64,000 nt of DNA from a bacterium (GTDB taxonomy: Bacteria > Electryoneota > Electryoneia > Electryoneales > Electryoneaceae): contig CAXXKJ010000002.1 of NCBI GenBank assembly GCA_963675295.2, positions 4,288,001-4,352,000 of the forward strand, in the 5' to 3' direction. The notes under the pieces are model-generated. The model made no database searches and was not told the DNA's origin. It saw only the letters and a list, made by a program, of their open reading frames with translations. The position numbers and the translations under genes are program-made. Within the stretch, counting starts at the first letter, position 1, and each line of letters begins with the position of its first letter. Shown piece after piece: positions 6,985-56,231 of the stretch.

Positions 6985-7000
6985 GTTAGGGAAACCGAAC
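6985..7000. promoter_or_regulatory. Palindromic operator GTTAGG-GAAA-CCGAAC just downstream of a TTGCAT-N17-GATACT promoter-like element (6948-6976)
   Basis: Matches a motif repeated about 11 times in intergenic DNA of this window. Confidence 0.7.
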
Positions 7001-7043
7001 TTTATAAGTATCAGGCATGGGGGCTTTAACAGGGGACAGAAAG

Positions 7044-9157
7044 ATGAAGGGCATGCGAATCGCGTTTGTTGTACTGCTGTGTGTAATAGTAGCCGGCAGT
7101 GTGTACGCTGAGTGGGAGTTCTTGAACGGTCCGGAAGGCGGCACGATTGAGAAGCTGTTCTACGCGTCTGATGGAACCGTGTATGCGATTTCGGGATCGG
7201 CAGGGATCTTCTATTCGATGGATGACGGGGCATCCTGGTACGCCACGTCCTACACCGGTCCGGAACCAGCGGTTGTTTCCGAATCGCCGTCCGGTCGGAT
7301 GTCATGGTCGATCGTTTCAATCCAGACGTGTTTTATTCGGACGATCATTTCATGACCATCGAGACCATGGACGGTCCGGCTGGCGGTGCCTTGGAGTCAG
7401 TGTATGCGTTCAGCGATGATATTGTCCTGGCTGCGGGCCGAGGTGGTGGAACGCTCGCCTTTTATCGTACTACGGATGGTGGTGGTTCCTGGAATTCAGT
7501 GTTGAATGCAGGCTTCATCGGGTTCGATCCGATTTACACACCGGGGAATGGCGGATTGTTTGTCGGCTTTGAAATCGGGTACAATCTTCAGTTTACCGGC
7601 AATCAGGGTGAATCGTTCACGCAGAAAGCAGACCCTGATGGCAATCCCGGGATGGTTTTCCTGCTGGCGACCGATCAGGACAACCTGGTCGCTGGACGCG
7701 GGATGAACATCTTCCGCAGCACCGACGCTGGTGATTCTTGGACCGAGGTATATGAACAGGCGGATGGTCTGCTCATGGGTGGCGATGTTGGTCCTGACGG
7801 TACGTTGTATGCGCGGCATACGGGCGGTACGAACGCGTATTCCTCCGATGACGGCCAGACCTGGACGACGGTGCAGGACAACTACGACATTTTTGAAGCC
7901 ACGAACGATATCTGTGTCACCGACGGCAACTTCATCATGGCTGGCGGACGCGGTTGCTTCGTCCGGGATGGGGTTGGCGACGACTGGATGGTGAGCAACT
8001 CCGGTCTTGTTGCCTCGACAGTAGGGTCGGTGATTGCGTCCTCGACGGGGCACGTCGCGGCGGGCACCGCCGGTGGATTCTTCCACACGATGGCTCCGAA
8101 CGGGACCTGGACCGCACGTGACGAACCAGCGAACACGGTTGGCATGAACCAGAACGGCACCATGTTCGCCGGCAGCCTCAACCAGCTGGTGGTCTCGACG
8201 GACAACGGCGCAACCTGGACCAGCGCAACCGGCATTCCGGAAGCCACGGTCCGTTTTGTCCTCTTCGAAAGCCCAGGCTCGTACATGTTCGCCAACGTAC
8301 AGGGAACCATCCCGCTCGGGTTGTACCGGTCGGCCGATAACGGTGACAACTGGTCACAGCTCACCGACTGGTTTGTCAACGACATCGCGGTGGCGGCGAA
8401 CGGCGACATGTATGTCGTCACCACCACCGAAGGCTTCGGCATTTCCACCGACAACGGCGACAGCTGGAGCTGGCCACACGCACAGTTCAACCAGTTTGAG
8501 GTGGAACTCGGCCCGGATGGCCAGATTTATCGCGCAACCAGCGAAAGCACTGATATCTCCACGGATGGCGGAAGCTCGTGGACCGACATCAGCAGCAATG
8601 CTCTGCCGGACGGTGTCGATTTTGTGAACATGACCGTCAACGCGCTTGGCGTGACCGGTGACGGCACCATTTTCATGGACATGGACTGGTACAGCAGTTG
8701 GCCGGAGTTGGTCACTGGCGGCGCTGTATACATTTCGGATGACGAAGGGCAGTCGTGGGAAGCGATCAACGGCTGGCGTGCTACCAGCTTCAACCACGGG
8801 GCCGACGGGTATTTGTACGCCGGTACCTCGCAGGGTGTGATGCGCATCATGAGCGGTGCGGATGTGGCTGAGGCCGACATCCTGCAACCGTCGGAGTATA
8901 CCCTGCGGCAGAACTACCCGAATCCGTTCAATCCGTCCACGTCGATTTCGTTCTCCTTGCAGCAGCCGGGCCACACGCAGCTGGTGGTTTACAACCTGAC
9001 CGGCCAGCGCGTGGCGACGCTCTACGACGGCCAGCTCAGCGCCGGATTGCACTCTGCACGGTTTGATGCGGCAGGCCTCGCCAGCGGGGTCTACCTGTAC
9101 CAGCTTTCACAGGATGGACAGCCCGCTCTTACGCGGAGGATGATGTTGCTGAAATAG
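7044..9157 (+). pseudogene. Secreted BNR/Asp-box beta-propeller protein with T9SS-type CTD, split by a 1-nt frameshift near 7299
   Basis: ORF 7017-7355 has the signal peptide and first SxDxGxSW box; ORF 7304-9157 continues the boxes and ends in the YPNPFNP CTD; adding one base at GGT CGG AT^GTC ATG joins them. Confidence 0.75.
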
Positions 9158-9305
9158 CCGGAGTTGTGCGCAGATCAAGAACGTGCAGTTTTCAATTACC
9201 CCGGTCGAATCTCTGAATTGATCGGGGCAGGTTGGTTTTAAACCTGCACGCGTTTATCTTCGGTATCCTTCTCACGGACGGTTAACCAGATCCGGCCAAG
9301 AACGA

Positions 9306-9692
9306 ATGACGTTTTCCATTCAGAACATCGTTGCGGTTGCGTTGGCGGGTGCCGCGGGCACCTTGCTTCGGTATGGCCTTGCTGGCTGGGTCGAACGCAT
9401 GTCTGCGCCCGGATTTCCGTGGGGAACGTTAACCGTCAACCTCGTCGGCTGCTTCCTCGCGGGCTTGCTGGTAACCTGGATCGGGCTGCGCGCGTCAGTG
9501 GACCCGACCTTGCGTACCGCGATCCTCGTCGGTTTCCTCGGAGCGTTCACCACCTTCTCGACGTTTATCGTCGACGCGAACACGTTGCTGAAGACGGCGT
9601 CCTGGATGCAGGCGGGAGCCTATGTGTTGCTGCAGAACGGCGTCGGGCTGCTGGCGTTGGCCGGCGGGATCGCGATTGCGCGGTTTTTGTGA
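9306..9692 (+). CDS. crcB: Fluoride channel Fluc/CrcB
   Basis: PWGTLTVN and GFLGAFTTFSTF signatures. Confidence 0.93.
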   Translation: MTFSIQNIVAVALAGAAGTLLRYGLAGWVERMSAPGFPWGTLTVNLVGCFLAGLLVTWIGLRASVDPTLRTAILVGFLGAFTTFSTFIVDANTLLKTASWMQAGAYVLLQNGVGLLALAGGIAIARFL

Positions 9693-9720
9693 GTCCTCAG
9701 TCCTGAAGCTTAAACGAAAC

Positions 9721-9865
9721 ATGCCCCAGACATTCAGGTCTGGGATCAGCCGCCCGTTAAACAATACTGCCGCTGTGCCTGTTCGGACCTGCCCTCGGGC
9801 TTCAGCCCGGGATTTGCTGTGGATCAGTGAACCACAGGACCACGCCCTCGGACTTCAGTCCGGGA
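9721..9865. repeat. Cluster of REP-like hairpins (GCCCCAGACATTCAGGTCTGGG; GCCCTCGGGCTTCAGCCCGGG-type x2)
   Basis: Related copies at 58090, 58144, 59715 and 61631. Confidence 0.8.
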
Positions 9866-11831: not shown

Positions 11832-11902
11832 TGAACTACCTCCCTGTCCCCCATCCATACATATTTCTCCCAGCCTTAAATGTAACTCCTATCTATTCCA
11901 AC

Positions 11903-19322: not shown

Positions 19323-19326
19323 CGGC

Positions 19327-26305: not shown

Positions 26306-26321
26306 CTTAGGAAATCCTAAC
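26306..26321. promoter_or_regulatory. Palindromic operator CTTAGG-AAAT-CCTAAC
   Basis: Member of the recurrent motif; just upstream of a TTGCGA...TAAGCT promoter-like element. Confidence 0.7.
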
Positions 26322-29168: not shown

Positions 29169-29642
29169 TCAAGCCGGGGGATCGCTGCGGTATTTGTCCG
29201 GATCGTACCGGTGCATGTAGTGTTCGGGATGGTCGAGCGGCGTGAAGCCATGCCTCGCGTACAGGGAGTGGGCGTCATCCGTCGCGAGAATCCAGCGCCG
29301 GACCGGTTCAAAGGTCGGATACGCCAGCACCTCCTCCACGATCCACTTGCCCAGTCCCTGACCGCGATATTCTTCGTCGATGAACACGTCCATGAGGTAC
29401 GCGATCGCGCTCAGGTCGGACAGGACACGCGCGAAGCCAACCTGACGTTTCACCGTGCCTGTGCCGGGTTCCAGCACGTACAACCCGAAGCAGTACGAAT
29501 TCTCCAGCACTCGCTTGACCCGCGACTTCTGAATTCCCTGTGCCCAGTAGCTGCGGTTGAGGAAGCCGTGGATCGTATCGAGATCGAGCAGCGACTTGTC
29601 ATCACTGAACATGAACGGCTGGCGAATAAGCTGCGAAGGCAT
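29169..29642 (-). CDS. GNAT family N-acetyltransferase
   Basis: SYWA, QVGFARV, YRGQGLGK, ATDDAHSLY. Confidence 0.9.
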   Translation of the reverse strand: MPSQLIRQPFMFSDDKSLLDLDTIHGFLNRSYWAQGIQKSRVKRVLENSYCFGLYVLEPGTGTVKRQVGFARVLSDLSAIAYLMDVFIDEEYRGQGLGKWIVEEVLAYPTFEPVRRWILATDDAHSLYARHGFTPLDHPEHYMHRYDPDKYRSDPPA

Positions 29643-29872: not shown

Positions 29873-29967
29873 GTTAAGCATACCTAACTATCTTGAGTAC
29901 TTTTCCCCGCAGACTTGTCCGAATCCCACGCATTCGTCAGCTTTACAATGAGTTAGGTATTTCTAAC
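29873..29967. promoter_or_regulatory. Two operators: GTTAAG-CATA-CCTAAC (29873-88) and GTTAGG-TATT-TCTAAC (29952-67)
   Basis: Recurrent palindrome; the second lies just after TACAAT (-10-like). Confidence 0.72.
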
Positions 29968-31581: not shown

Positions 31582-31659
31582 GTTAAGGCGACCTAACAAA
31601 TTCCTCACAAAACGAGAAAGTTCTTGCATTCTCGCCCTGAAAGATTAAGCTTCCCTAAC
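31582..31659. promoter_or_regulatory. Two operators: GTTAAG-GCGA-CCTAAC (31582-97) and ATTAAG-CTTC-CCTAAC (31644-59)
   Basis: Recurrent palindrome; the second overlaps the -10 position of TTGCAT (31624). Confidence 0.72.
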
Positions 31660-31692: not shown

Positions 31693-33111
31693 ATGCGTAG
31701 CTTGAGCAAAGTGCTTGCAGTCATGACTCTGCTTGCGATGTTAGGTGTGTCTAACTCGTTTGCGTTGAACGTGACGATCATTGAGAGTCAGAGTTACAAT
31801 CCGTCCCACACGATGGACCTCGAGTGGCAGGCGGTCGCGACGGCGATGGGCCACACGGCGACGATTGTCCCGCAGTCGACGCTGGACACTGGCGCGTTCA
31901 TTCCGGGTACGGATGTATTGATCGTGTCCTCCGGCGTGATTCCGCTGCCGCCGCCGCGTATCGACTACATTTTCGAGTGCCTGTACGCTGGCAAAGCGGT
32001 GTACGTACAGTCGGAAGACAGCCCGAACCAGCCGGGGAATTTCGCCTGGGCTCAGGTGCTGAACATGTTTGGCGAGCCATTTGTCTGGTACGGTCCGGTT
32101 CCCGGCAATATGCGCGCCACGGTTCATGGCCCGATCGGCGCGGAATACAACGCGGTTCCGATGCTGGTTGAACTGTACGATGGTTGTGACGGATATACCA
32201 GCAATTATGTCCGCGGAACACTTCGGTTCCTCGGTGCTGAGCTCGGCTTCCTGTATAATCCCGCGAATGCTCCGTTCGCCGGTATGGCGGCGACCACCAC
32301 GGACCAGGAGTGGATCCGTCTCGGGCTGAACCCGGCCTTGATGGAAAATATCATCGACTCGATCATCGATGATATGCCGCTCGATCGCATTATCCGTATC
32401 AGCCCGAACCCGCCGGGTCCGGTGACTGTGCCGCTGGCTGGTGGTTCATTTGACTACGATGTTCAGATCAGCTATACCGATTGGGTTCCCGTGACCTTCC
32501 GCGCATGGACGCGTCTGATCCTGCCGAGCGGTGCTGTCTGGGGCACGCTGGTCGGTCCGGCGACGATTTCCTGGGCTGCCCCGACCACGACCCCGGTGTT
32601 CACCTTCACCCAGTTCATTCCGGGCTTTGCGCCGACAGGTTTGTACTTCGTGCAGGGTGTATTGGGTGATGTCTACCCTGGTTTCGCGACCTGTTTCGAC
32701 TCGGACAATTTCATGTTCCAGAAGCTGCCGGTGAGCGCCAATGGTGCTTCGACGATTGAACCGGTGACCGAGTGGAAGTCGGAAGGATCGTTCAGCGTAG
32801 CGTCGGATGAGGAATCCGCTCTTGAGCAGCCGTCCGCACTGCCGGATGAGTTCAGTGTTGGCCAGGCCTACCCGAACCCGTTCAACCCGTCGACCACGAT
32901 TGACGTGTCTCTCGCGGACGCGGCGAACCTGACTGTGACGGTGTACGACGTACAGGGGCGTGAAGTCGCGACCCTAGCCCAGGGTGCGCACACCGCCGGG
33001 TTGCATTCGTTCAGCTTTGACGCCTCCGGCCTCGCCAGCGGTGTCTATTTCCTCCGCGCGAATGTGCCGGGTCAGTTGAACGAAACCCGCAAGCTGGTTC
33101 TGATGCGATAA
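31693..33111 (+). CDS. Secreted CTD protein, tandem paralog 2 of 5
   Basis: Same architecture as paralog 1. Confidence 0.88.
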   Translation: MRSLSKVLAVMTLLAMLGVSNSFALNVTIIESQSYNPSHTMDLEWQAVATAMGHTATIVPQSTLDTGAFIPGTDVLIVSSGVIPLPPPRIDYIFECLYAGKAVYVQSEDSPNQPGNFAWAQVLNMFGEPFVWYGPVPGNMRATVHGPIGAEYNAVPMLVELYDGCDGYTSNYVRGTLRFLGAELGFLYNPANAPFAGMAATTTDQEWIRLGLNPALMENIIDSIIDDMPLDRIIRISPNPPGPVTVPLAGGSFDYDVQISYTDWVPVTFRAWTRLILPSGAVWGTLVGPATISWAAPTTTPVFTFTQFIPGFAPTGLYFVQGVLGDVYPGFATCFDSDNFMFQKLPVSANGASTIEPVTEWKSEGSFSVASDEESALEQPSALPDEFSVGQAYPNPFNPSTTIDVSLADAANLTVTVYDVQGREVATLAQGAHTAGLHSFSFDASGLASGVYFLRANVPGQLNETRKLVLMR

Positions 33112-33281: not shown

Positions 33282-33297
33282 GTTAGGATGTCCGAAC
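33282..33297. promoter_or_regulatory. Operator GTTAGG-ATGT-CCGAAC
   Basis: Lies in the spacer/-10 region downstream of TTGCAT (33271). Confidence 0.72.
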
Positions 33298-35004: not shown

Positions 35005-35020
35005 GTTAGGCAAGCTTAAC
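35005..35020. promoter_or_regulatory. Operator GTTAGG-CAAG-CTTAAC
   Basis: Extends to TTGTTAGGCAAGCTTAACAA; upstream of paralog 4. Confidence 0.72.
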
Positions 35021-35186
35021 AAACACCATAGTGGGCGCCCGCAAATCCGCTACACCTGCAGGGACAAGGCGTCACAAACATGTATCACAAACACCCCGGA
35101 TCCTGCGACTCCAGATATGGAGTTCGGAGATCCTGACACATATCAAACAGAGCCACCGAACATGGGCAAAGAGAGAGGGAGTTACC

Positions 35187-39261: not shown

Positions 39262-41754
39262 TCACATCCCGCCTTCGTCGTCGAATCCGTTGTCCATCAT
39301 CCCACCGGGCTGCCGTTTCTGGCGTTCATCCTGGTTGAACCGGTAGGTGAGGTTGAGCATGAACGTGCGTCCGCGCCACTGGAATTCCGAATCCGAATAG
39401 AACGTGTCGGTGGTGGTTTTCATGTTGCGTTTGCGCGTGTCGAACAGGTCGCGCACATTGAACGCGAGCGTCAGGTTGTTGTCCAGGAAATTCTGGCTGA
39501 GGCCGAGATCCAGCGCGTAGATCGGATCGCGTTCAGATTGCAGCAATTCACGCGGGCCCATGTAAAAGAACCGCAGCTGCAACTGGGAGGTCTTGGTGAA
39601 CTGCCAGCGGGTGCTCGCGCGGGAAAACCAAGTGAGGAATTCACGGTCATACGACACCCCACCGAACGAGCCACTCGATTGCGACTGGTAGATGTTCATG
39701 CTGGCCTGCATGTTCAGCCGCTTCATCAGCTGATACATCACCTCGAACTCGAAGCCGTAGTGGTCGGCGTCCCCGATATTGTACGGCTGCGAAACGATCA
39801 CATCACCTTCCGTTGTCTCGAACCACTCAATCACACCGGTCGAGTGCCGGTAGTAGACACTGCTGCTGACCGATCCCTTGTCGGTGTGGAACAGGTGGCC
39901 GATCTCGAAGCTGTTCGAGTACTCCGGATCGAGGTTCGGGTTGCCGCGACGGATGTTCCGGCTGTCGGTGTAGTTCCAGAACGGAATCAGGAACCAGTGA
40001 TGCGGTCGCATCAGCCGCCGCGAATAACTCGCTTGGATCGAGTTGACCGGGGTGATTTCGTAAGTCAGGAACGCGGACGGGAACAGATCAAAGTAGTCGC
40101 GTTCGTTGATTTCGTTCGTCTCACGGTACTCGGTGGTAATGTCGGAATACTCACCGCGCAGGCCGATCTGGTAGGACCACGTGTCGTTCAGCAGATTCGA
40201 GAAGGTGAAGTACCCGGCATAGATGTTCTCATCGTAAATCAGGTGATTGCTGACATCCACCGTCGTGCCGGTGCCGCCTTCGATCACTTCGTAGTCGTGA
40301 TCCAGCTCTCGCATGTTGCCCTTGACACCCGCCTCGATCTTGTGCTTCTCGCTGTACGGGTGCACATAATCGAGTTGGAACAGGTGCCGGGTTTCGCCCT
40401 CGAGGTTGTCCACGTATTCGACGAGATCGTTGTCCGGGCCTACGAGCACGTCTTCCGTGATGACGGACAGCTCGTTCTCCGACCCGGTCTCGAACTGGTA
40501 GTCGGCGGTGAATTCGTGGCCCTTGGTGTCAAACAGGTGCCGGTAGCCGAAGTCGAAACCGTTATAACGTTCCGTCTCCTCTTCCGGGTTGTTGCGGTAG
40601 ATGTCGGATGCCAACACGCCGTTGTCGTCGAAGTAACGGTAGTGCACGTAGGCATCGGTCTCATCCTCGCCGTAGTCGTTGAACGCCGACACGGTCACCG
40701 TATTCTTGTCATCGTGCATGTATTCGAAGCCGAAGCGGACGTAGTTGCTCCAGCCGGACCGGTCAAATTCTTCGTCCTCGTCCAACGTCGCGAACGGGGC
40801 ATCGGGGCTGTAGTATTCCTGGTACGTCGACCCGCCACCGTCATGGCTGCGATACCGTAGTTGCTCGTTGATGAAGTAGTTCATCTTGCCGGTGCGGTAG
40901 TTCAGGTTGAATCCACCGCCGTAGCCTTCGGGGATCGAGCCGGACACGTTCACCGACCCGTTCACACCCTTTTCCCGTTCCTGCTTCAGGATGATGTTCA
41001 GAATGCCGGCGTCGCCCTGGGCATCGTACTTCGCGGACGGATTGGTCATCACTTCGACACGATCCACCATCTCCGCGGAAAGCTGCTGCAACGCTTCGCC
41101 CGGATCGAGACCGACACGGGTGGACGGCTTCCCGTTAATCAGGATGCGCACGTTGCTGTTGCCTCGCAGACTGACCGTGCCCTCGAGGTCGACGGTAACC
41201 GAGGGGATTTCCTCGAGTGCGTCCGCGACCGTACCGCCGGCATCCGCAACGCTGGAGCTGATGCGGTAGATCTTGCGATCCGGCGCGAGGGTCACCTCTG
41301 TGCTTTCCACACGCAGCTCGACCTCTTCCAGTTCGAGTGTGGTGGAATTGAGCGTCAACTTCCCGAGATTGACACGCGGCGACTCTTCGTTGATCTCAAT
41401 ATTCTCAACCAGCACCTGGTTGTAGCCAAGCGCGCGAATGAGCAGGTCGTACGTTCCTTCCGGCACCGCCATGATGCGGAATCCGCCGTCATCCTCGGAC
41501 GCAGCACCTCGCACGGCGGCATCGTTGTCTACGGTCTCACCTTCGTGCAGCACCCCGTCCGGAAACAGCATGATATTCGCGCCGGGGATCGGCATGTCGG
41601 CGTCATTGTCGGACACACTCCCCATGATCATCCACATCCGAGGCGAGGCGTCGCCAGCGGTCTGCGGCTGAACTTGCGCAAACAGCGTATTTGAGACACC
41701 AAAAAAGAAACCGGCCAGCAAAACGATCGTCAGGACCGGTGAGTTGCGGTGCAT
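39262..41754 (-). CDS. TonB-dependent outer-membrane receptor (CarboxypepD_reg-like N-domain, plug, beta-barrel)
   Basis: IPSVTVD..G.VSLRG, EVMTNPSAKYDA, GNPNLDPE, terminal LTYRF. Confidence 0.9.
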   Translation of the reverse strand: MHRNSPVLTIVLLAGFFFGVSNTLFAQVQPQTAGDASPRMWMIMGSVSDNDADMPIPGANIMLFPDGVLHEGETVDNDAAVRGAASEDDGGFRIMAVPEGTYDLLIRALGYNQVLVENIEINEESPRVNLGKLTLNSTTLELEEVELRVESTEVTLAPDRKIYRISSSVADAGGTVADALEEIPSVTVDLEGTVSLRGNSNVRILINGKPSTRVGLDPGEALQQLSAEMVDRVEVMTNPSAKYDAQGDAGILNIILKQEREKGVNGSVNVSGSIPEGYGGGFNLNYRTGKMNYFINEQLRYRSHDGGGSTYQEYYSPDAPFATLDEDEEFDRSGWSNYVRFGFEYMHDDKNTVTVSAFNDYGEDETDAYVHYRYFDDNGVLASDIYRNNPEEETERYNGFDFGYRHLFDTKGHEFTADYQFETGSENELSVITEDVLVGPDNDLVEYVDNLEGETRHLFQLDYVHPYSEKHKIEAGVKGNMRELDHDYEVIEGGTGTTVDVSNHLIYDENIYAGYFTFSNLLNDTWSYQIGLRGEYSDITTEYRETNEINERDYFDLFPSAFLTYEITPVNSIQASYSRRLMRPHHWFLIPFWNYTDSRNIRRGNPNLDPEYSNSFEIGHLFHTDKGSVSSSVYYRHSTGVIEWFETTEGDVIVSQPYNIGDADHYGFEFEVMYQLMKRLNMQASMNIYQSQSSGSFGGVSYDREFLTWFSRASTRWQFTKTSQLQLRFFYMGPRELLQSERDPIYALDLGLSQNFLDNNLTLAFNVRDLFDTRKRNMKTTTDTFYSDSEFQWRGRTFMLNLTYRFNQDERQKRQPGGMMDNGFDDEGGM

Positions 41755-41986
41755 GGAATCCGTCTCCCAATTTATCATGAATAAAATCAAGCCTTTCGCT
41801 TCACGAAAACCTGTCGGTTCTCGAGTATGCTATATAGACGATGAACAGCCTGAAATGTTTAACTCCCCCGGAGCCAGCATCGCCGAATCCTGAGCAAAGC
41901 GTGGAAACCCGAAAAACTTCCTCTACTTAGTCGCAGTTTTACTTGCGAATCTTGAGAATGTTCACCATATTGCCCGGCGCAGTTAA

Positions 41987-42002
41987 GTTCGGCATTCCTA
42001 AC
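41987..42002. promoter_or_regulatory. Operator GTTCGG-CATT-CCTAAC
   Basis: Reverse complement equals GTTAGG-N4-CCGAAC as at 6985 and 33282. Confidence 0.68.
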
Positions 42003-42003: not shown

Positions 42004-43308
42004 ATGGAATCACCCATGGATGCGACTCAGGCAGCATTGATCGAGGCAACCCGGAGCATGTTGAATGCGGACCGGACGCTCGATGTTATCGAACGCATCC
42101 TCCATTCAGCCCAGTCGCTTTTAAACGCGCAGGCGGCGTCGGTGTTCCTGATCGACAACCGGAGGCGGAATCTGGAGATGGTCGCGTCGACCAATCTTCC
42201 CCGTCACGTGGTCGAAAGCATCCGATTCCCGCTTGGCGAAGGCGTAGCTGGCTGGGTCGCACAGCACAACGAGACGGTCTTGCTGGAGGATCTCACCAGT
42301 GATCCGCGATATTACGCCGGTGTCGCGAAGAAAACCGGTTTCGAGACTCGCGGGTACCTCTGTGTTCCGCTGGCTGTAAATGGAACATCGATTGGTACGG
42401 TGCAAGTGTTGAACCAGAATGTGGGACCTGCGTTCAACGCGGCCGACCAGCAACTACTCGAAAATTTCGCCGTGATCGCCGCCCTGGCGATTGAGAAGTA
42501 CCGTCTGCACAGCCTCGCGGTCGAGAAGGAACGCATCGAAGCAGAGCTGGCTGTCGGTAAAGCCTTCCAGTCAACTCTGCTGCCGTCTAAGTTCACACCA
42601 CCTGACCCCTGGCGGATTGCGGCGTTCAATGAGCCCGCTCGCTTGATGGGCGGCGACTTGTACGATGCGTTGCCGATCAACGGCAAATACATGGTCGCTC
42701 TCGGGGATGTCAGCGGCAAGGGACCGGGCGCAGCGTTCTGGATGTCCGGCTTCGCCCACGTGCTGCGGTTCATCGTCGAGCAGGACAAAGATCCCATCGA
42801 TCACATCAGGATGCTCGACGAGCATCTGCACAACACCATGCCCTCCGACAGTTTCCTCACCCTCTTTCTCGCCGTCTTTGAAGAGGGCGGCTTCCGTTAC
42901 ACCAGCGCCGGGCACAACCCGATGCTGTTGTTGCATGCGAACGGAGAGATTGAGTGGTTGGGCGCGACCGGCCTGCCATTATCGCTGCTACCCTTTTCCC
43001 CACGGGAGACGAAATGGGTCGAGATGCGTCCCGGCTCACGGTTGGTATTATTCTCGGACGGTCTCACCGAAGCGGAGAATTGCCACGGGTTGATGTATGA
43101 GGAGAAGCGGCTCGAGCGGATGGTCCGTCGCACGATGGATCTGCCGGGCGAAGAAGCGATCTACCGGCTGATCCGTTCGGTGAAACGTTTCGCCTGCGGA
43201 CAAGAACAGTCGGACGACCTGACGGTGATGACCGTAACCCACACCGGCGATCCGGAATCGGCCGCGGTCGAAATCGTGGAAACCAAATCAGAATCCATCG
43301 CGGCGTAG
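42004..43308 (+). CDS. GAF + PP2C/SpoIIE phosphatase (RsbU-like)
   Basis: GEGVAGWVA GAF; GGDLYD, GDVSGKG, SAGHNP, FSDGLTE, SDDLT. Confidence 0.92.
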   Translation: MESPMDATQAALIEATRSMLNADRTLDVIERILHSAQSLLNAQAASVFLIDNRRRNLEMVASTNLPRHVVESIRFPLGEGVAGWVAQHNETVLLEDLTSDPRYYAGVAKKTGFETRGYLCVPLAVNGTSIGTVQVLNQNVGPAFNAADQQLLENFAVIAALAIEKYRLHSLAVEKERIEAELAVGKAFQSTLLPSKFTPPDPWRIAAFNEPARLMGGDLYDALPINGKYMVALGDVSGKGPGAAFWMSGFAHVLRFIVEQDKDPIDHIRMLDEHLHNTMPSDSFLTLFLAVFEEGGFRYTSAGHNPMLLLHANGEIEWLGATGLPLSLLPFSPRETKWVEMRPGSRLVLFSDGLTEAENCHGLMYEEKRLERMVRRTMDLPGEEAIYRLIRSVKRFACGQEQSDDLTVMTVTHTGDPESAAVEIVETKSESIAA

Positions 43309-48234: not shown

Positions 48235-50127
48235 CTAGTCTTTGAAGATGTACTTGACCGGGCGCTTGATCATTTCCCACTCGCCGGTGGCCGGATCCCA
48301 CTTGGCGTTCGCGAACGCGAGCCAGTTTTCCTCGTCCATCTTCGGCGTATCGGCACGGAAGTAGTATCCCGGCCAGCGGGTTTCTTCGCGGAAGAGCATC
48401 GTGCGGACGTGCACTTCGGCCTGCCACATGCGCTGGATATTTTCCCAGACACGCATGAGTTCGTGCAGGTCTTCGGCGGCCAACAGCTTGCTGTCTTCCT
48501 TGAGCATGTCGAGCAGCTCGAGGGCGCGTTCCAGCGAGGCCTTGTTGGTCGTGAACTGGGCGCTCACGCCGCCGGCGTACTCGTCCATGATCTTCTGCAG
48601 ACGGAACATGAACATCTTCGGACGCATGTATTCCGGGTTGATGTCGTTGTCCGAGGTGGCGTTTGCCTTCTGCTCAAACAGATCCAGCGGAGCGAGCAGG
48701 GTGTTCTTCATCTCTTCGACGAGATCATCCGGGATAGCCGGAGCATCGCCCTTGTCCATCGCGTACTTCACGGCGGACTTACCGGCGATACGACCTTCCG
48801 CGTGCGAACCGGAGGAGAACTTATGCGAGCTGGCGCCAGAGGCGTCACCGGCGTGGAACAGGCCTTCGACGGTGGACATCTGCGCGTAGCCCCAGAAGTA
48901 CTCATCCTTGGTGTTGGCGTTCTGGATGTCTTCCGGACCGGAGACCCAGGCACCGGAGGCGCCGGAGTGCGAACCGATGAAGTACGGTTCGGCGGCGGCG
49001 ATTTCCGAGGACTTCTCTTCCGGCTGGACGTTGCTGGCGGCCCACAGGAGCGCCTGCGAAATCGTCATGTCGAGGAAGTCTTCCCAGGCTTCGTTCTCGA
49101 GTTCCTTCTTCTTTTTCTTGTAGCCCTTTTCGTCATCCTTGTAGGCATCGGCAATCTTCTGCATCGCTTCTTCGGTGCGCATGAAGATCGGGCCCTTACC
49201 TTCCATGATGTCGAGCATGCCGAGCCAGTTACGGAGGTTGGCCGGGATCGGCTTCACCTTACCGTACGGAGCCCAGTTTTCGAGCTCGTCACGACGTTCC
49301 ACCATGTACTCACCGCCCATGGCGTTGGTCGCGCGGGATTTGAAGAGCAGGAACCAGGCGCCGACCGGGCCATACCCGTCCTTGAAGCGGACCGGAATGA
49401 AGCGGACTTCCTGGCAGGTCTGCTCAGCGCCGGCGCGCGCGGAGAAGTACAGGGACGAACCGGTATTCCACGGCGGATACCAGGCGCGGCCGAGACCTTC
49501 ACCCGTGCTGCGGGGCTTGAAGACGTGCACAGCGCCACCCATACCGGCGAAGACGGCCTTGGCATGGAAGACGTAGAACTTGTTTTCGCGGGTGCTGAAG
49601 CCGGCGGCGCCGACGCAGCGGCCGTCGATCACGATCGGTTCAACGACGAAAACGCGTTCGTAGATGTTGTCGAGTCCGAGGGCGTTCTTGGCGGCTTCGG
49701 CAACGACGACCTTGTAGGATTCGCCGTTGATCATGACCTGCCAGCGGCCTTCGTGCACGTAGTTGCCGTCCTCATCCTTCCAGATCGGGAGTCCCCACTT
49801 CTCGAAGAGATGGACGGTGCTGTCGACGTGACGTGCAATGTTGGCAACGAGGTCTTCACGGGTGATGCCCATGAGGTCGTTGCGGACGTAGTCGACGTAG
49901 TCCTTGATGGTGTTCTTGCCACCCTTGAGGTCGACGTACTGGTTGATGGCGGAGAGGCCCATCGCGACGGCGCCGGAGCGGTCCATCGCGGCCTTGTCCA
50001 CCAAGGTGACCTTAAGGCCGTTCTTCTTGGCCCAGTAAGCCGCTTCAACCGCGGCACCACAGGCCGACATGCCGCCACCGATAATCAGGACGTCGGTTTC
50101 GACCTTGACGGTTTCGAAATTCGCCAC
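48235..50127 (-). CDS. aprA: Adenylylsulfate (APS) reductase alpha subunit
   Basis: RSGAVAMGLSAIN, WQVMINGESYK, RFKDGYGPVGAWF, SGASSHKFSSGSHAEGR, EETRWPGYY. Confidence 0.97.
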   Translation of the reverse strand: MANFETVKVETDVLIIGGGMSACGAAVEAAYWAKKNGLKVTLVDKAAMDRSGAVAMGLSAINQYVDLKGGKNTIKDYVDYVRNDLMGITREDLVANIARHVDSTVHLFEKWGLPIWKDEDGNYVHEGRWQVMINGESYKVVVAEAAKNALGLDNIYERVFVVEPIVIDGRCVGAAGFSTRENKFYVFHAKAVFAGMGGAVHVFKPRSTGEGLGRAWYPPWNTGSSLYFSARAGAEQTCQEVRFIPVRFKDGYGPVGAWFLLFKSRATNAMGGEYMVERRDELENWAPYGKVKPIPANLRNWLGMLDIMEGKGPIFMRTEEAMQKIADAYKDDEKGYKKKKKELENEAWEDFLDMTISQALLWAASNVQPEEKSSEIAAAEPYFIGSHSGASGAWVSGPEDIQNANTKDEYFWGYAQMSTVEGLFHAGDASGASSHKFSSGSHAEGRIAGKSAVKYAMDKGDAPAIPDDLVEEMKNTLLAPLDLFEQKANATSDNDINPEYMRPKMFMFRLQKIMDEYAGGVSAQFTTNKASLERALELLDMLKEDSKLLAAEDLHELMRVWENIQRMWQAEVHVRTMLFREETRWPGYYFRADTPKMDEENWLAFANAKWDPATGEWEMIKRPVKYIFKD

Positions 50128-50142
50128 GTTTGTTTCCTCCGG

Positions 50143-50583
50143 TTACTGGTTCAACTTGAAGAAGTCGGCCTGGACGGATTCCGGCTCGGTGAACAGCATC
50201 GGGCTGTTGATGTCACCATCGCCTTCCTCAAAGCCACCGTTCGGGACCGCGGTACCTTCTTCAGTGGTACGGATCGGGAACTTGAAGCGTTTGAGGTTTC
50301 CGTTACGGAACTTCACCGTCCACATGATGCTGTCGGACCCGCGCATCGGGGACACCGTCGCACCCATCGGGACAAAGTCCGCGTAGCCGCGTACTTCGAT
50401 CGCCTGCACCGGGCAGATCTTGACGCAGTTGTAGCATTCCCAGCACAGTTCCGGTTCCCGATTGTAGGCCTTCATGAGATCCTTGTTCAGGACCATGAGG
50501 TCATTCGGGCAGATGTACTGGCACGCGGTTTTGTCGAGCGCCTTGCACCCGTCGCACTTGTCGAGGATTACGTAACTTGGCAT
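50143..50583 (-). CDS. aprB: APS reductase beta subunit
   Basis: MPSYV..CDGC...CQYICPNDLM, CWECYNCVKICP, WTVKFRNG. Confidence 0.97.
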   Translation of the reverse strand: MPSYVILDKCDGCKALDKTACQYICPNDLMVLNKDLMKAYNREPELCWECYNCVKICPVQAIEVRGYADFVPMGATVSPMRGSDSIMWTVKFRNGNLKRFKFPIRTTEEGTAVPNGGFEEGDGDINSPMLFTEPESVQADFFKLNQ

Positions 50584-50680
50584 GTTGCCTTTCCTCCCAG
50601 TCTGCCTTGCCGCCTTTTGTGACGGCCCACTTGACTTCGGTTTGGTTTGTTCGGTTTGTTGAACGTGAATTCTTGCTTGT

Positions 50681-50698
50681 TTGTGAATGATAGCACAA
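50681..50698. promoter_or_regulatory. Rex-like box upstream of aprB (TTGTGAATGATAGCACAA)
   Basis: 2 mismatches to TTGTGAA-N4-TTCACAA. Confidence 0.65.
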
Positions 50699-50808
50699 AC
50701 TGGAGCTGGTAAAGCCGCCGTTCCCCCCGGCGTCTTTGACTCAACTCTCAGCGAAAATCGCAGCCGTGTCCGCCCGTTCGGACGGACACAGCTACGCAGG
50801 AATCGTGC

Positions 50809-52038
50809 TTACTGACCGAGACTCGCCCGGTGTTCCTTGACTTCAACCTTCTCCTCAAGACTGGCGTAATACTCCACGAGAATCTTGAGCACTTCCGGAC
50901 GGCTGAATTCTTTCGGAACTTCGTCCGCCTGGTCTTCGCTGAGCATTTTGCGCAGCTTCGTACCGGACAGGAAAAGACGCTCTTCCTTGCTGTGCGGGCA
51001 GGTCTTCATCGAGGCCATGCCGTTACAGGTGTAGCACCAGAAGGTCCAGTCGATCTTCAGCGGCTGGGTGATCAACGCACCATCCCACAGCGTGTCGAAG
51101 ATTTCCTGGGCGTCGAACGGGCCGTAGTAGTCGCCCACACCGGCGTGGTCGCGGCCGATGATCATGTGCGAGCAGCCGAAGTTCTGACGGAACACGGCGT
51201 GCAGCAGGGCTTCACGCGGGCCGGCATAACGCATGTCGAGCGGATACCCACCCTGGAACACGCGTTCCTTGACGAAATAATTTTCGACGAGGGTGTCGAT
51301 GCACTTGACGCGCACGTCCGCCGGGATGTCGCCGGGCTTCAGCTTGCCGACGAGCTGGTGGATGTACACACCGTCCATCACGTCCACCGCGATCTTCGCG
51401 AGGAACTCGTGGCTGCGGTGCATCGGGTTACGGAGCTGCAACGCTGCGACGTCTTTCCAGCCACGCTTGTCGAATTCGGCGCGGGATTCCCACGGACGCT
51501 GGTAGATACCGGCGAATTCCGTCGGGAACGGACCTTCGGAGAGGACCTTGATCGGGCCACCGAGGTTCACAGCCTTCTGCTCCATCACCATCTTCACACC
51601 GGGGTGCTCGAGATCGGTGGTGGTGTAGACATGCTTGCATTCGAATTCGCGGTCGATTTCATACTTCTCTTCGACCTTCATCGTGCCCATGATCTCGCCG
51701 TATTCCTCGGAATACAACGCGACTTCCTCACCGACCTCGATCGAATCGGCGAGTTCTTTGTCGGCGGACAGAGTGACCGGGATTGGCCAGAAGGTGCCAC
51801 CCATGCTCGGCATCTTCATCTCGGAGCAGACATGCTCCCAGTCTTCCTTGCCCATGAAGCCCTTCAGCGGGGTGAAACCGCCGATGCCCATCATGATCAG
51901 GTCGCCCGTCTCACGGCTGGACAGCGGGACTTTCTTCAGTCCTTCGGCCTTCTTGAGTTCCGCTTCCTTTTCCTGGCCCTCGAGCAGGAGAATGACGAGT
52001 TCGTCACTGCCATGAGGGGGCACCAATTTCGATGCCAT
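50809..52038 (-). CDS. sat: Sulfate adenylyltransferase (ATP sulfurylase)
   Basis: [38 protein letters not shown]. Confidence 0.97.
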
Positions 52039-52057
52039 GAAAACCTCCCCTTCCTCT

Positions 52058-52075
52058 ACGTGAATCCGTTCACTA
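52058..52075. promoter_or_regulatory. Rex-like box upstream of sat (ACGTGAATCCGTTCACTA); weaker one at 52177-52194
   Basis: GTGAA-N4-TTCAC core, nearly identical to the qmoA site. Confidence 0.65.
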
Positions 52076-52237
52076 AGCGAAACTTAACGCATGCTCTCGA
52101 AAACGAACAACCTGCGGGAGGACTGTTTGCCTCCCCTTATACCTAAAGATGTCAACAGTTTTTGTTCGTTCCCTGTTTGTGCGAAAATTCGCGAAGTGCC
52201 TGAAAATCTTGTGACTATGAATTACTCTAACTAAAAT

Positions 52238-52253
52238 GTTCAGCTATCCTAAC
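52238..52253. promoter_or_regulatory. Operator GTTCAG-CTAT-CCTAAC upstream of sat
   Basis: Variant of the recurrent GTTAGG-N4-CCTAAC palindrome. Confidence 0.55.
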
Positions 52254-52400
52254 AGTAAACCGGCAAGGTAGGCCGTCCGGGGGGACGGCACAACCTTTCG
52301 TACAGTGTCTTTCGTCTCTCGTCCTTTGACTCGCGAAAGATGCCGCCCTTCTCAATCAAGCATCTCAGAACCAAAGACTCTGGACTCGTGACGGTTGTTC

Positions 52401-54659
52401 CTAGAAATCCTTGAACGGGTTCGGCCCGATCTCTTCGATTTCCTCGGCATAATCGTCGAGCATCTTCGTGATCTTGTCGTACTCGTCGATCGCGAGCGAC
52501 GTGACCTGCACACGTTCAGTTTCCAGCTGCATCTGCTGCAGTTTTTCCTGCACGTTGTCCATGCGGTATTCGGCCAGTTCCGAGCCGCGCACGAAGTGGC
52601 ACTGGTAATCATCGCCGTGCTTGCAGCCGATTAGCATGATGCCGTCGAAGCCGGCGTCCAGGCAGTTCGTCAGCCACACCGAGTTCACCGAACCGAGGCA
52701 GCGCACCGGAATGATGCGAACCCACGGGTTGAACTTCATGCGTTTCCGGGCCGCGGTTTCGAGGGCCGGCAACGCATCGTTTTCGCAAACGAATGCGACC
52801 AGGCGCGGTTTCTCCTCTTCTTCTTCCGGAACTTCGACGGCCTTGATCATCGCATTACCCATCGGCACGCTGTAGTTCTGGAAGTTGATGATGCGTTCCG
52901 GGCATGCGCCCATGCACGTACCGCAACGGCGGCAGCGTGCGAGGTTCGGCTTCGGTGTTCCCTTTTCGTCCTCGTCCAACGCACCGAACGGGCAGTCTTC
53001 CGTACAGCGTTTACACTGCGTGCAACGTTGCAGGAAGAAGTCCGGGAAGCTGAGGTCACGGCTGCGCGGATGCAGTGCCTGGCCCTTTTCGACCATCTCG
53101 AGTGCTTGCACGGCCTTCAGAGAGGCACCGTTCGCATCCATCCGTGCCTGCGCGGTGTCCATCGGCGCGCGCACGGTCCCGGCGGCGAAAATCGCCGTAC
53201 GCCGGGTTTCGTACGGGAAGCAGATGAAGTGACTGTCCGGGAAACCGTACTTCAGCGTCGGCAGGTCGGTACCCTGGCGGTAGCTCAGGTTCAGAATCTT
53301 CGCACCGGCTTCCGCTCCGGCGGCGGCTTTCTTGCCACCGAGCCCGTCATCTTCGTCCTCGACCGGTGAATCCGGCTTACCCTCTTCCATCAGATCCTCA
53401 GCGAAGATGCCGTCTTCGACGCGTGTCGTCGGGACCATACCGGTCGCGAGTACCAGCATGTCGGCTTCGACGCTGATCTTGTCTCCGAGCAGAGTTTCGT
53501 CGAGATCGATGGCCAGCTTGCCACCTTTTTCGTCGACGTTGACCACTTCGCCCTTGGTGAAGAAAAAGCCCGGATCGTCCTGAGCCTTCTGGTAGAAGAG
53601 CTCATACTGGGCCGGGGAACGGATATCCTTGTAAAGGATGTAGACCTTGGTGTCCGGATACATCTCGCGGATCTGCATCGCGTGCTTCAGGCTCGCGCGG
53701 CAGCAAACCGTCGAACAATACGGCAGGTGGTCCTTGTCACGCGACCCGGCGCACTGGATGAACGCGATCGAGTCCGGCGCGGAACCGTCCGCCTTGATCA
53801 CGGCGCCGTTGCTCAACATCTCTTCCATCTGGATGTTGGTGACAACGTTCTTCTTGCCATAGCCGAGATGCGGCAGGCGGGCGGGATTGTACGGCTTCCA
53901 CCCGGTCGCCTGGATCACCGATCCGACGATCAGGTCTTCCGGCGCGCCACCGTTCTGCAGGATCGTGGCAAACTGGCCCGGCTGGCCGGAAATCCGCTTG
54001 ACCTTCGTGTTCAACTTGACGTCGATCAGATCATGCGCGTTGACACGTTCGATCAGATCATTGATCGGGGAATCGGCGAGCTGATCGTACGGCGGGGCGG
54101 TCGGGAACGACTTGCTGAATTTCTTCGACCAGCCGCCGAGTGCCGCTTCCTTTTCCACCAGCGTCACTGGCACACCGGCATCCGCCGTGTTCAACGCGGA
54201 GCGCAGGCCGGCAACACCACCACCGACCACCAGCACCCGTTTTTCAACCGGTTCGAGGTTCGGTTCGGGGACGTGAATGTTCTTGCATCGCGCCGTGTAC
54301 ATGCGGAGATAGTCTTCCGCCAGCATCTGTGTGTCTTCATCGTTCGGCTCATGGGTCCAGACGACGAGTTCACGCAGCGCGACCTGGTCCACCAGCACAT
54401 TCGGGCCGAAATCAAACAGGCCGGGGAACGCGCGCGGGCTGCGGTCGAGCACAACGACGTGGCTCAAGCTGTTTTCTTCAACATCGGCACGGATCATATC
54501 CGCGCCTTCTGGTGTGGAGATGTTCGGCACGGCTTTGTACACCGCAGCCTTCATCTCCTTGGTCGCGACCTTCTCGAGGGCGTCCATGTCAAGCGCGGAC
54601 GTAATCTCCTCATCGGCCGCCACATACACACCAACCTTCAGTTCCGGGGTATCGGCCAT
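52401..54659 (-). CDS. qmoB: QmoB (HdrA-like flavoprotein with 4Fe-4S and C-terminal MvhD domain)
   Basis: GGGVAG, FIQCAGSRD..HLPYCS..CC, SHFICFPYETRRT, CTQCKRC, VRCLG...GC...DYQCHF. Confidence 0.93.
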   Translation of the reverse strand: MADTPELKVGVYVAADEEITSALDMDALEKVATKEMKAAVYKAVPNISTPEGADMIRADVEENSLSHVVVLDRSPRAFPGLFDFGPNVLVDQVALRELVVWTHEPNDEDTQMLAEDYLRMYTARCKNIHVPEPNLEPVEKRVLVVGGGVAGLRSALNTADAGVPVTLVEKEAALGGWSKKFSKSFPTAPPYDQLADSPINDLIERVNAHDLIDVKLNTKVKRISGQPGQFATILQNGGAPEDLIVGSVIQATGWKPYNPARLPHLGYGKKNVVTNIQMEEMLSNGAVIKADGSAPDSIAFIQCAGSRDKDHLPYCSTVCCRASLKHAMQIREMYPDTKVYILYKDIRSPAQYELFYQKAQDDPGFFFTKGEVVNVDEKGGKLAIDLDETLLGDKISVEADMLVLATGMVPTTRVEDGIFAEDLMEEGKPDSPVEDEDDGLGGKKAAAGAEAGAKILNLSYRQGTDLPTLKYGFPDSHFICFPYETRRTAIFAAGTVRAPMDTAQARMDANGASLKAVQALEMVEKGQALHPRSRDLSFPDFFLQRCTQCKRCTEDCPFGALDEDEKGTPKPNLARCRRCGTCMGACPERIINFQNYSVPMGNAMIKAVEVPEEEEEKPRLVAFVCENDALPALETAARKRMKFNPWVRIIPVRCLGSVNSVWLTNCLDAGFDGIMLIGCKHGDDYQCHFVRGSELAEYRMDNVQEKLQQMQLETERVQVTSLAIDEYDKITKMLDDYAEEIEEIGPNPFKDF

Positions 54660-54663
54660 GGGA

Positions 54664-55920
54664 TCAGGACCTCCTCGCCATCTGCAGCGCCTTCATCGCG
54701 GCGCCGGTCGCATCCTGCAACGTTTCCGCCACACCACACGGACGCACGGCCGTGCCGACGCCGTAGTGGGCGGACGCTTCGTCATCCTGGATGAAGAACC
54801 CATTCTCGTCCAGGTTCGCCTTGATCGGCAGCGGTTCGAGTGCAGCGGTCGGCTGCATGCCGGTGGCGAGCACGACGAGATCGACGGTCACATTTTCCGT
54901 GTCGCCGGTCAGGGTATTCTCCGCAGTGACCACCAGGCCGCCGCCGTTCTCCTCGACCTTCGCCACCTTGCCGCGATGCAAATTGATCTGCGGATCGTCC
55001 TGCCGAGCCTGGTAGAAATCTTCCAGACGGCCGGGAGTGCGCACGTCGATGTAGAACATGTGGATTTCAGCATCCGGCAGCTTGTCGCGCACATACGTCG
55101 CCTGCTTCAGGCTCGCCGCGCAGCAGATGCCGGAACAGAACGGAAGGTGGTTTTCGTCACGGCTGCCCGCGCACTGCACGAACGCGACTTTCTTCACCTC
55201 ACGGCCGGACGGGGCCTTCAGCTCGCCCTTCGTCGGACCGTTCGGCGCGCTCAAGCGCTCGAACATCACGTTGGTCAACACATCCGGCGATGTGCCGAAT
55301 CCGAGCAGGTCGAGGTTGGTCGGATCGTACGGCGTCCAACCGGTCGCCCACGCCATCGACTTGCCGGTGATCGTGATCGTCTCTTCCTTCTGGGTCAGAT
55401 CAATCCCGCCAGCCGGATCACCCTTCGCCCACTCTTCGAACTCGGCGTTTCCAATCGCGCGTTCGTCGACCATCCACTGTGCCGGGTAGGCGTTTTCCCA
55501 CGGGTAGAACAGCGCCTTGCGCTTCGCCATCCCGTAGTTGTATGGATCGTCAAAGTCGACCGGGCAGGATTCCGCCCACTCGGTATAGTCGAACGCCACC
55601 GGTTTCGTGTAGCGTGGGGTCAGCTTGATCGTCGCTTGAATGCTCGGTGCATCTCCCTCAACCTTTTCGATGTTGGCGAGGGTGAAGACGGTGACATTCG
55701 GGTTTCCACGGATCCTGCGGTAGTTGATCTCGAGGCCGCAGCTCGGTGGGCACAGCTTCGGGAAGTAGTGGTGGAAACGGGCAACGCGTCCTCCCAACGT
55801 CGGTTCCTTCTCGACGAGGGCGACTGTCAGCCCGGCTTCCGCCGCTTCGATGGCTGTGGTGATCCCGGCGACACCGCCACCGACCACGATGAGGTCAAAG
55901 GCGGTTTTGTCCTGGCTCAT
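54664..55920 (-). CDS. qmoA: QmoA (HdrA-like flavoprotein)
   Basis: YFPKLCPPSCGLEIN, FVQCAGSRDENHLPFCS, QDATGAAMKA; GGAGG RBS before ATG 55920. Confidence 0.93.
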   Translation of the reverse strand: MSQDKTAFDLIVVGGGVAGITTAIEAAEAGLTVALVEKEPTLGGRVARFHHYFPKLCPPSCGLEINYRRIRGNPNVTVFTLANIEKVEGDAPSIQATIKLTPRYTKPVAFDYTEWAESCPVDFDDPYNYGMAKRKALFYPWENAYPAQWMVDERAIGNAEFEEWAKGDPAGGIDLTQKEETITITGKSMAWATGWTPYDPTNLDLLGFGTSPDVLTNVMFERLSAPNGPTKGELKAPSGREVKKVAFVQCAGSRDENHLPFCSGICCAASLKQATYVRDKLPDAEIHMFYIDVRTPGRLEDFYQARQDDPQINLHRGKVAKVEENGGGLVVTAENTLTGDTENVTVDLVVLATGMQPTAALEPLPIKANLDENGFFIQDDEASAHYGVGTAVRPCGVAETLQDATGAAMKALQMARRS

Positions 55921-55951
55921 GTGCCATTCCTCCGGAAAGATGATGCCTTTA

Positions 55952-55969
55952 TCGTGAATCCTTTCACAC
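55952..55969. promoter_or_regulatory. Rex-like box upstream of qmoA (TCGTGAATCCTTTCACAC)
   Basis: GTGAA-N4-TTCAC core. Confidence 0.68.
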
Positions 55970-56215
55970 AATCCTTTGAAAAGAAAGGCTGTAAGGGTGC
56001 AAGCAGCCCTCAAAGCCAGCACACCGGCACACCATCAGGTGGCCGGCCGGCCGTTCGGATTGCGAACGTCTTTTCAATCGATCCCTGAACTATTTCAACG
56101 GTTCCGCGCCAGAAACCAGACTTCTCAGTAAAGATTCCGCGATTTCAAGGGGCGCGGACAGAGTGGGGACCACGTCGCATGGAAGGTAGACTCGAGCTCA
56201 CGGGTTAGTCAAACG

Positions 56216-56231
56216 GTTAAGGGGGACTAAC
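56216..56231. promoter_or_regulatory. Weak operator GTTAAG-GGGG-ACTAAC
   Basis: Variant of the recurrent palindrome between qmoA and the FG-GAP gene. Confidence 0.4.

Follow-up and report, generated by a model that had tools for sequence, protein, structure and literature searches.

The 64-kb stretch of bacterial DNA analyzed here (hereafter the window; G000:C2:4288001-4352000) contains repeated copies of a 16-bp palindrome, GTTAGG-N4-CCTAAC, which also lies upstream of genes throughout the source genome (G000; 4.81 Mb in two contigs, 58% G+C). The palindrome is most probably the operator for a single dimer of a metalloregulator of the DtxR/MntR family whose gene lies outside the window; the strongest candidate is a 240-residue paralog designated DtxR-C. 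A DtxR-type site had been put forward in an initial annotation of the window, and that reading holds as the probable one: the core matches a published consensus, predicted sites precede all three DtxR-family genes of the genome, and iron and manganese genes are among the putative targets. The regulon seems to be large, with approximately 170–200 predicted sites.

The palindrome and its conservation

Genes were called with our own, crude caller, giving 3346 genes and 13.6% intergenic DNA. This small fraction of the genome holds 149 of the 174 copies that match the palindrome with at most two mismatches, and at one mismatch or fewer 55 intergenic copies compare with 0–3 for each of 15 composition-matched control palindromes. 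When scored with a 20-position position weight matrix (PWM), 171 fully intergenic matches reach at least 12, against 14.4 expected under a second-order Markov model, and 208 reach at least 11, against 26 expected. The concern, voiced in the initial annotation, that the palindrome might be no commoner upstream of genes than in shuffled or coding DNA is dispelled by these counts. In the window itself, the degenerate pattern of that annotation finds seven matches (mean 0.09 in 100 shuffles), and the palindrome occurs 13 times with at most two mismatches, against 0.85 expected and a maximum of four in any shuffle. The 218 intergenic sites scoring at least 11 are distributed over both contigs, with 11 in the window and 17 on the 274-kb contig C1.

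The 149 intergenic copies lie in spacers between divergent (53) or tandem genes (46 + 46), and only four lie between convergent genes, even though convergent spacers make up 20% of intergenic DNA; the motif is therefore a 5′ element. A terminator or a repetitive extragenic palindromic (REP) sequence was rejected on the same count and because the flanks are unrelated. A logo of 92 oriented sites gives a two-fold symmetric consensus, wGTTAGG-N4-CCTAACw, with a spacer and flanks that are nearly free of information and no fixed -35 partner. The spacing is strict: TTAGG-N4-CCTAA occurs 13 times, and the corresponding N2, N3, N5, and N6 arrangements do not occur.

Phylogenetic footprinting, a check suggested in the initial annotation, distinguishes sharply between the parts of the palindrome. 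The comparison was with a congeneric genome (G001), which is 85–94% identical to the window in aligned DNA, and covered ten intergenic window sites. Half-site positions are identical in 119 of 120 cases, the sole change being in the site upstream of sat when this is aligned ungapped, whereas 25 of 40 spacer positions are identical, as are 577 of 695 flanking positions (83%; 84.4% for all aligned intergenic DNA). This shows that purifying selection acts on the half-sites only. In another genus (G009), a site scoring 16.9 is kept at the same place ahead of a 56%-identical ortholog of the SpoIIE phosphatase encoded in the window, within unrelated flanks. Copies with at most one mismatch number 59 in G000, 63 in G001, 31 in a third genome (G002), and 0–6 in other families. 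The control for these counts was the reversed pattern, which makes a weak baseline given the rarity of words that contain TAG, and a clear excess is therefore claimed only for G000, G001, and G002. The sites were apparently gained in this genus.

The element might alternatively be part of the promoter itself (for example, an extended -10 used by an alternative sigma factor) or a dispersed repeat of the REP or miniature inverted-repeat transposable element type, given that its right half followed by TT (TAACTT) is like the local -10 (TAyhTT) and that dispersed palindromic repeats do exist in the genome. This is highly improbable. The two-fold symmetry is perfect, no -35 is held in place (TTGC is suitably placed in only 10 of 358 oriented cases), the distance to the start codon ranges from 8 to more than 300 nt, and the shared DNA spans just 16–18 bp between unrelated flanks. 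Half-sites that are fixed while the spacer evolves freely, and sites kept at orthologous places in other genera, likewise argue against it.

The dispersed palindromic repeats of G000 have contiguous stems, are unrelated to the motif, and do not form arrays (examples at C2:1365, C2:24210, and C2:4487585). Their types are TTACCACGGACTTAAGTCCGTGGTAA (39 exact cores), CCCCAGACAT-NN-ATGTCTGGGG (57), and GGGGACACTT...AAGTGTCCCC hairpins.

Candidate regulators

The genome contains three DtxR-family genes (Fe_dep_repress, PF01325, above cut-off), all outside the window, and all three are preceded by a site (scores 17.4, 13.6, and 18.7), compared with a background of approximately 7–11% of genes. The initial annotation had placed the regulator beyond the window and had looked to a DtxR-family gene for it, and a single trans-acting regulator would fit this arrangement. 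Paralog A (339 residues) carries two fused FeoA domains and precedes the one true feoB of the genome; paralog B (148 residues) is MntR-like. The third paralog, DtxR-C (G000:C2:4506554-4507276), combines a winged-helix N-terminus (PF01325, 56.1 bits), a dimerization and metal-binding domain (PF02742, 106.1 bits), and an SH3-like, FeoA-type C-terminus (PF04023, 41.7 bits), all above cut-offs. All three paralogs look autoregulated or cross-regulated from the placement of these sites. Neither of the two Fur genes has a site directly upstream, and Fur was rejected as the regulator on this ground.

The site upstream of DtxR-C is retained in 12 of 14 orthologous loci within the taxonomic family, where the proteins are 53–95% identical. 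Among three homologs in other families, a site precedes one, that of G017, which has the same APSVTGM recognition helix; the homologs of G020 and G025 carry DST(I/V)TAM and have no site. In G017, the exact TTAGG-N4-CCTAA sequence occurs once genome-wide, and this is the site before the DtxR-C homolog. Of 80 homolog loci retrieved in a scan of public genomes, 21 have a site scoring at least 9 within their 5′-terminal 560 nt, compared with two matches in all among the remainders of the loci (approximately 1100 nt each). Loci titled Gemmatimonadota or Gemmatimonadales carried the site in 14 of 30 cases.

The sites of the other two paralogs are also conserved. That of B is kept in 13/13 orthologs, with a left half of GTTAGG and a right half of CCTATC, and that of A in 10/13, with variant half-sites that read GGTAGG-N4-TCTACC outside the genus. 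In many genera of the family (L245-L257), two tandem sites 17 bp apart (GTTAGG-N4-CCTATC then GTTAGG-N4-CTTAA) stand upstream of paralog B and may form a composite operator. DtxR-C itself is followed by two same-strand BNR/Sortilin genes of the type IX secretion system (T9SS) C-terminal domain (CTD) kind (L102, G000:C2:4501726-4507276), of the same family as the window gene 7304-9157. A conserved linkage of the two was rejected, as only G001 and G002 of ten relatives show it.

Sites at all three DtxR-family genes leave room for a DtxR-family operator whose main binder is paralog B or A, or for which all three proteins compete with different metals. The unbroken retention of the B site with its GTTAGG left half would suit this arrangement, as would the helix of B (PSVTE), which is near that of C (PSVTG). 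The genome-wide consensus, CCTAAC(T)T, is however that of the DtxR-C sites, whereas the right half at B is CCTATC and A has GGTAGG/TCTACC half-sites outside the genus. Moreover, in G010 (87% complete), B was found, A and C were not, and there are no motif copies at one mismatch or fewer. We regard B or A as an unlikely principal binder, and the abundant motif appears to fit DtxR-C best.

A dimeric regulator from a different family could also bind the palindrome, with the DtxR link a coincidence. Candidates do exist: several regulator genes are among the approximately 230 targets, and a MarR (L057), a TetR (L021), and a response regulator gene (L063) likewise have an upstream site. Such a coincidence would have to account for a core identical to the IdeR/DtxR one-dimer consensus printed in PMC8464063, for sites at each of the DtxR-family genes and at canonical iron and manganese genes, and for the co-occurrence of the site with the DtxR-C clade and its recognition helix across two phyla; it is quite improbable.

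The closest matches to DtxR-C in the PDB are 5zr4, 8pvt, ScaR, SloR, and IdeR. Its predicted metal ligands comprise Glu at the position of DtxR Met10 and Gln at that of Cys102, while Glu105-His106 are kept; residue 102 varies among orthologs (Q/R/E/H) and is Glu in 5zr4, 8pvt, and ScaR. Mn sensors have Asp or Glu at both of these positions. Position 43, in the recognition helix, is Gly.

Predicted regulon, secreted proteins, and the window sites

The 218 intergenic sites scoring at least 11 precede 235 genes that start within 450 nt, and all 235 were scanned against Pfam. Canonical metal-homeostasis genes are among them, and the check proposed in the initial annotation, for feoAB/mntH and a DtxR- or MarR-family gene among the matches, gives a positive result. 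Sites lie upstream of the feoA-fused regulator with the only true feoB, the only mntP (two sites, 21.4 and 11.7), a TroA/ZnuA-type ATP-binding cassette (ABC) operon (20.1 and 12.6), both Fe/Mn superoxide dismutase (SOD) genes, two ferritin-like genes, and three TonB-dependent receptor genes. A second group of putative targets consists of metal-rich or redox enzymes, many with Fe-S or heme: pyruvate:ferredoxin oxidoreductase, E1 components of 2-oxoacid dehydrogenases, citrate synthase, NadA, RibBA, HemE, ferredoxin, NuoA, COX2, ResB/CcsA, sulfite reductase, several multiheme cytochromes, two sat genes, thioredoxins, AhpC, and MsrB. The initial annotation had envisaged control of an exported protein suite plus sulfate activation; the target set is global instead. 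As a target, sat has a site and is to that extent as proposed, but it is weakly supported, given the one core change in G001 and the lack of any site at PWM 8 or above upstream of sat in G002, G003, and G009.

Two gene arrangements were noted among these loci. Locus L229 (G000:C2:1836185-1838050) comprises a fur gene, a palindrome (14.7), a 146-residue open reading frame (ORF) without a family, and a ferritin-like gene. Locus L227 (G000:C2:1912244-1919710) has a site before a gene with an FGE-sulfatase domain, followed by a gene for a 1948-residue C25-peptidase protein with a CTD; identification of the former as gldK of a T9SS core operon was rejected given this neighbor. A manganese riboswitch before mntP was likewise rejected, there being no Rfam match at E ≤0.01, and a scan of the window against Rfam yielded no families at gathering scores.

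The palindrome had been described initially as marking the promoters of secreted CTD proteins. With a profile built from the genome's own CTDs, a T9SS CTD was found to terminate 403 of the 3346 predicted proteins (12%), which makes the type IX secretome very large; a Pfam search of CTD candidates covered 150 of 421. When the comparison is confined to genes that have 50 nt or more of upstream DNA to themselves, CTD genes account for 66 of 230 targets (29%) and 276 of 1879 non-targets (15%), an odds ratio of 2.3 (p ~4e-7). Of the 342 CTD genes in this set, only 66 (19%) are preceded by a site. The original description is thus too narrow, given these two shares, and the link between motif and secreted proteins is real but partial. 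An artifact of gene duplication was mostly rejected: the 235 upstream regions form 183 similarity groups, 64 of which include a CTD gene, and groups with more than one member consist, with few exceptions, of the two sides of a single divergent spacer. A separate motif class for CTD genes was also rejected, as the logo of 74 sites at CTD genes is the same as that of 181 other sites. Contig C1 carries many CTD genes.

All 11 full sites listed in the initial annotation are present where it placed them, as are its two lone half-sites (GTTAGG at 36705 and CCTAAC at 36839), and its gene assignments agree with Pfam: a BNR-CTD gene, a 124-residue ORF followed by a CTD gene, CTD paralogs, a divergent pair of TonB-dependent receptor and SpoIIE-GAF phosphatase genes, sat, and an FG-GAP gene. 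It had described all copies as intergenic; this applies to the 11 that it listed, and fails for two that it had not, 31740-31755 and 35122-35137, which lie within ORFs by our gene calls. A weak candidate at 50649..50664 was also absent from its list. The copies in the window are as follows, with positions relative to predicted transcription starts and the state in G001 where available.

6985..7000: operator-like palindrome GTTAGGGAAACCGAAC, PWM 21.3, 311 nt upstream of the BNR/Sortilin T9SS-CTD gene 7304-9157 (+); center at +10 of the predicted promoter; outside the G001 alignment.
26306..26321: palindrome CTTAGGAAATCCTAAC, PWM 18.3, upstream of the 124-residue ORF 26451-26825 and CTD gene 26928-28184 (+); identical in G001.
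29873..29888: distal site of a pair, PWM 22.3, between a GNAT gene, 29169-29699 (-), and a CTD paralog, 29988-31424 (+); predicted position -69; core identical in G001.
29952..29967: proximal site of this pair, PWM 22.8, 28 nt ahead of the start of 29988-31424 (+); predicted position +10; in G001, half-sites identical and 4/4 spacer bases changed.
31582..31597: distal site, PWM 17.5, upstream of CTD paralog 31693-33111 (+); predicted position -69; in G001, spacer altered and core retained.
31644..31659: proximal site ATTAAGCTTCCCTAAC, PWM 14.5, upstream of 31693-33111 (+); predicted position -7, overlapping the predicted -10.
31740..31755: extra copy GTTAGGTGTGTCTAAC, PWM 21.8, within the part of CTD paralog 31693-33111 that encodes the signal peptide; nearly conserved in G001 (left half identical, one change in the right half); function uncertain.
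33282..33297: site GTTAGGATGTCCGAAC, PWM 22.1, upstream of CTD paralog 33347-34780 (+); occupies the spacer of a predicted TTGCAT-17-GAACTT promoter, at predicted position -16.
35005..35020: site GTTAGGCAAGCTTAAC, PWM 21.5, upstream of ORF 35031-35603 and CTD gene 35643-36605 (+); outside the G001 alignment.
35122..35137: weaker copy GTTCGGAGATCCTGAC, PWM 15.9, in the doubtful 190-residue ORF 35031-35603, which has no Pfam family; may be leader DNA of 35643-36605.
41987..42002: site GTTCGGCATTCCTAAC, PWM 20.5, between the divergent genes for a TonB-dependent receptor, 39262-41790 (-), and a GAF-SpoIIE phosphatase, 42004-43308 (+); identical in G001.
50649..50664: weak extra candidate GTTCGGTTTGTTGAAC, PWM 10.5, between sat and aprB; identical in G001; near chance level.
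52238..52253: site GTTCAGCTATCCTAAC, PWM 18.1, 207 nt upstream of sat, 50809-52038 (-), in the sat-aprBA cluster.
56216..56231: weak site GTTAAGGGGGACTAAC, PWM 11.1, between a flavoprotein gene, 54664-56022 (-), and FG-GAP gene 56439-57893 (+); core identical in G001.

The sat-aprB-aprA cluster stands beside genes for HdrA/Qmo-like flavoproteins (48235-56022), which together constitute a sulfur module of the dissimilatory type.

Promoters were predicted with a model, TTGcnn-17-TAyhTT, derived from over-represented upstream words and self-training. Relative to the best-scoring predicted promoter, 105 of 179 site centers map from -60 to +20, and their distribution peaks sharply at -20 to -16. 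Proximal sites of the window are centered at +10, +10, -7, -16, +17, and +13 relative to predicted starts; at two promoters, a further site lies at -69. These positions make the repressor role suggested in the initial annotation plausible. In the proposed mechanism, a DtxR-C dimer loaded with Mn(II) and/or Fe(II) would place a recognition helix in each of the two half-sites, which are a helical turn apart, leaving the 4-bp spacer unread. At core-promoter sites, which are the majority, the usual effect would be repression by occlusion of the promoter, while sites placed further upstream (mntP, ferritin, one SOD gene) could activate. Paralogs A and B may share sites with DtxR-C or compete for them.

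It is interesting to speculate on what such a distribution may mean. The nearest named public relatives of the genus are Calditrichaeota metagenome-assembled genomes, and it is possible, if doubtful, that an ancestrally autoregulated sensor of the MntR/DtxR type was promoted to a global regulator in this genus through the independent gain of well over 100 single-dimer operators, allowing Mn(II)/Fe(II) to set secretion and respiration and three paralogs possibly to integrate metals. Independent gain is suggested because, the motif aside, the upstream regions share no similarity. The predicted operators front approximately one-fifth of a 400-protein T9SS secretome as well as respiratory, sulfur, and central-carbon genes, and the dissolved Mn(II)/Fe(II) that would act as the signal is a proxy for the sediment redox zone. 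Should the connection with secreted, sulfur, and respiratory genes be borne out, energy metabolism and extracellular degradation in these bacteria would both respond to metal availability as a master cue. The regulatory map is testable, as it names a candidate regulator and approximately 200 sites in a lineage that is uncultured and whose type IX secretome is unusually large.

Several observations weigh against a DtxR-C operator and the regulon built on it. The whole regulatory picture, from the binding paralog and its metal to the sign of regulation, is an inference from sequence, using gene calls and a promoter model that are home-made and crude. Chance alone predicts roughly 14–26 of the scored sites, and the promoter peak at -16 is inflated because the right half-site with TT (TAACTT) resembles the local -10. 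Most targets, T9SS cargo included, have no obvious tie to metals; an Nramp-like gene lacks a site, and a second ABC-3 operon has one of score 7.4 only. Two of the 14 DtxR-C orthologs in the family (L113, L115) and 16 of the 30 Gemmatimonadota-titled loci are without the site. The three paralogs are not distinguishable as binders; their own operators differ slightly, and more than one protein may therefore read the motif. DtxR-C scores best with the MntR equivalog model NF047407 of NCBIfam, at 178.7 bits far under the cut-off of 350, and is not a member of it; its ligands are non-canonical, and the metal may be either Mn or Fe.

Comparison with known systems

The initial annotation had taken TTAGG-N4-CCTAA for the core of DtxR/IdeR boxes, and it is indeed printed as the 14-bp consensus proposed for one dimer of IdeR/DtxR, TTAGGNNNNCCTAA (PMC8464063). 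This proposal arose from a complex of one Saccharopolyspora erythraea IdeR dimer on a "half binding site"; in the same source, the nuo promoter is a one-dimer case and 37 regions are reported. The system described here resembles that of IdeR in its inverted CCTAA pentamers with a 4-bp gap, in the presence of the regulator family with sites preceding its genes, and in the NuoA/nuo target. It differs in that sites are as a rule of the one-dimer form, each pentamer is flanked by an extra G/C, approximately 170–200 sites are predicted rather than 37 regions (PMC8464063), and DtxR-C is closer to Mn sensors than to IdeR. In the classical 19-bp two-dimer box, TTAGGTTAGSCTAACCTAA, a second pentamer pair is offset by 5 bp; this pair is not conserved in the logo of 92 sites, where spacer and 3′ flank positions carry at most 0.14 bit except for the W beside the core. 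The many natural sites under selection lend support to the recent proposal that DtxR/IdeR-type proteins use TTAGG-N4-CCTAA as one dimer.

In its protein and putative binding mode, DtxR-C is most like DR2539 of Deinococcus radiodurans (PDB entry 8pvt and related entries) and the regulator of entry 5zr4, its best matches, with which it shares an SVTGMLR helix with Gly43 and one dimer per pseudo-palindrome. DR2539 binds as one dimer to a 21-bp pseudo-palindrome, has Gly at helix position 43, and targets a Mn transporter gene, according to the accessible part of the report (bioRxiv 10.1101/2024.02.12.579695), which describes no large regulon. Sequence identity to DR2539 and the 5zr4 regulator is moderate.

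The PorX/PorY and SigP regulators of the T9SS in Porphyromonas are a two-component system and an extracytoplasmic function sigma factor that act on genes of the machinery. They are not metal sensors, and here it is the cargo genes that carry the site. MntR of Bacillus subtilis and E. coli, together with SloR, ScaR, and MtsR, are Mn-sensing dimers of the DtxR family that repress uptake systems (ABC, Nramp), and their DNA motifs differ from the palindrome. MntR also activates efflux genes via upstream sites, as reported in bioRxiv 10.1101/2024.06.28.601288. A parallel is seen in the present genome, where two sites lie upstream of mntP and those of the ABC uptake operon are close to the promoter; DtxR-C nevertheless falls under the cut-off for the NCBIfam MntR equivalogs.

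Full-text searches found no paper on a DtxR regulon with Calditrich* and one unrelated paper for DtxR with "type IX secretion", while the 14-bp consensus string retrieved only the IdeR paper and its preprint; no description of metal control of T9SS cargo was found in the literature searched. The operator type and the regulator family are already known. What is new is the scale, the near-exclusive use of one-dimer sites, their apparent gain at the level of a genus, and the presence of T9SS cargo among the predicted target genes.

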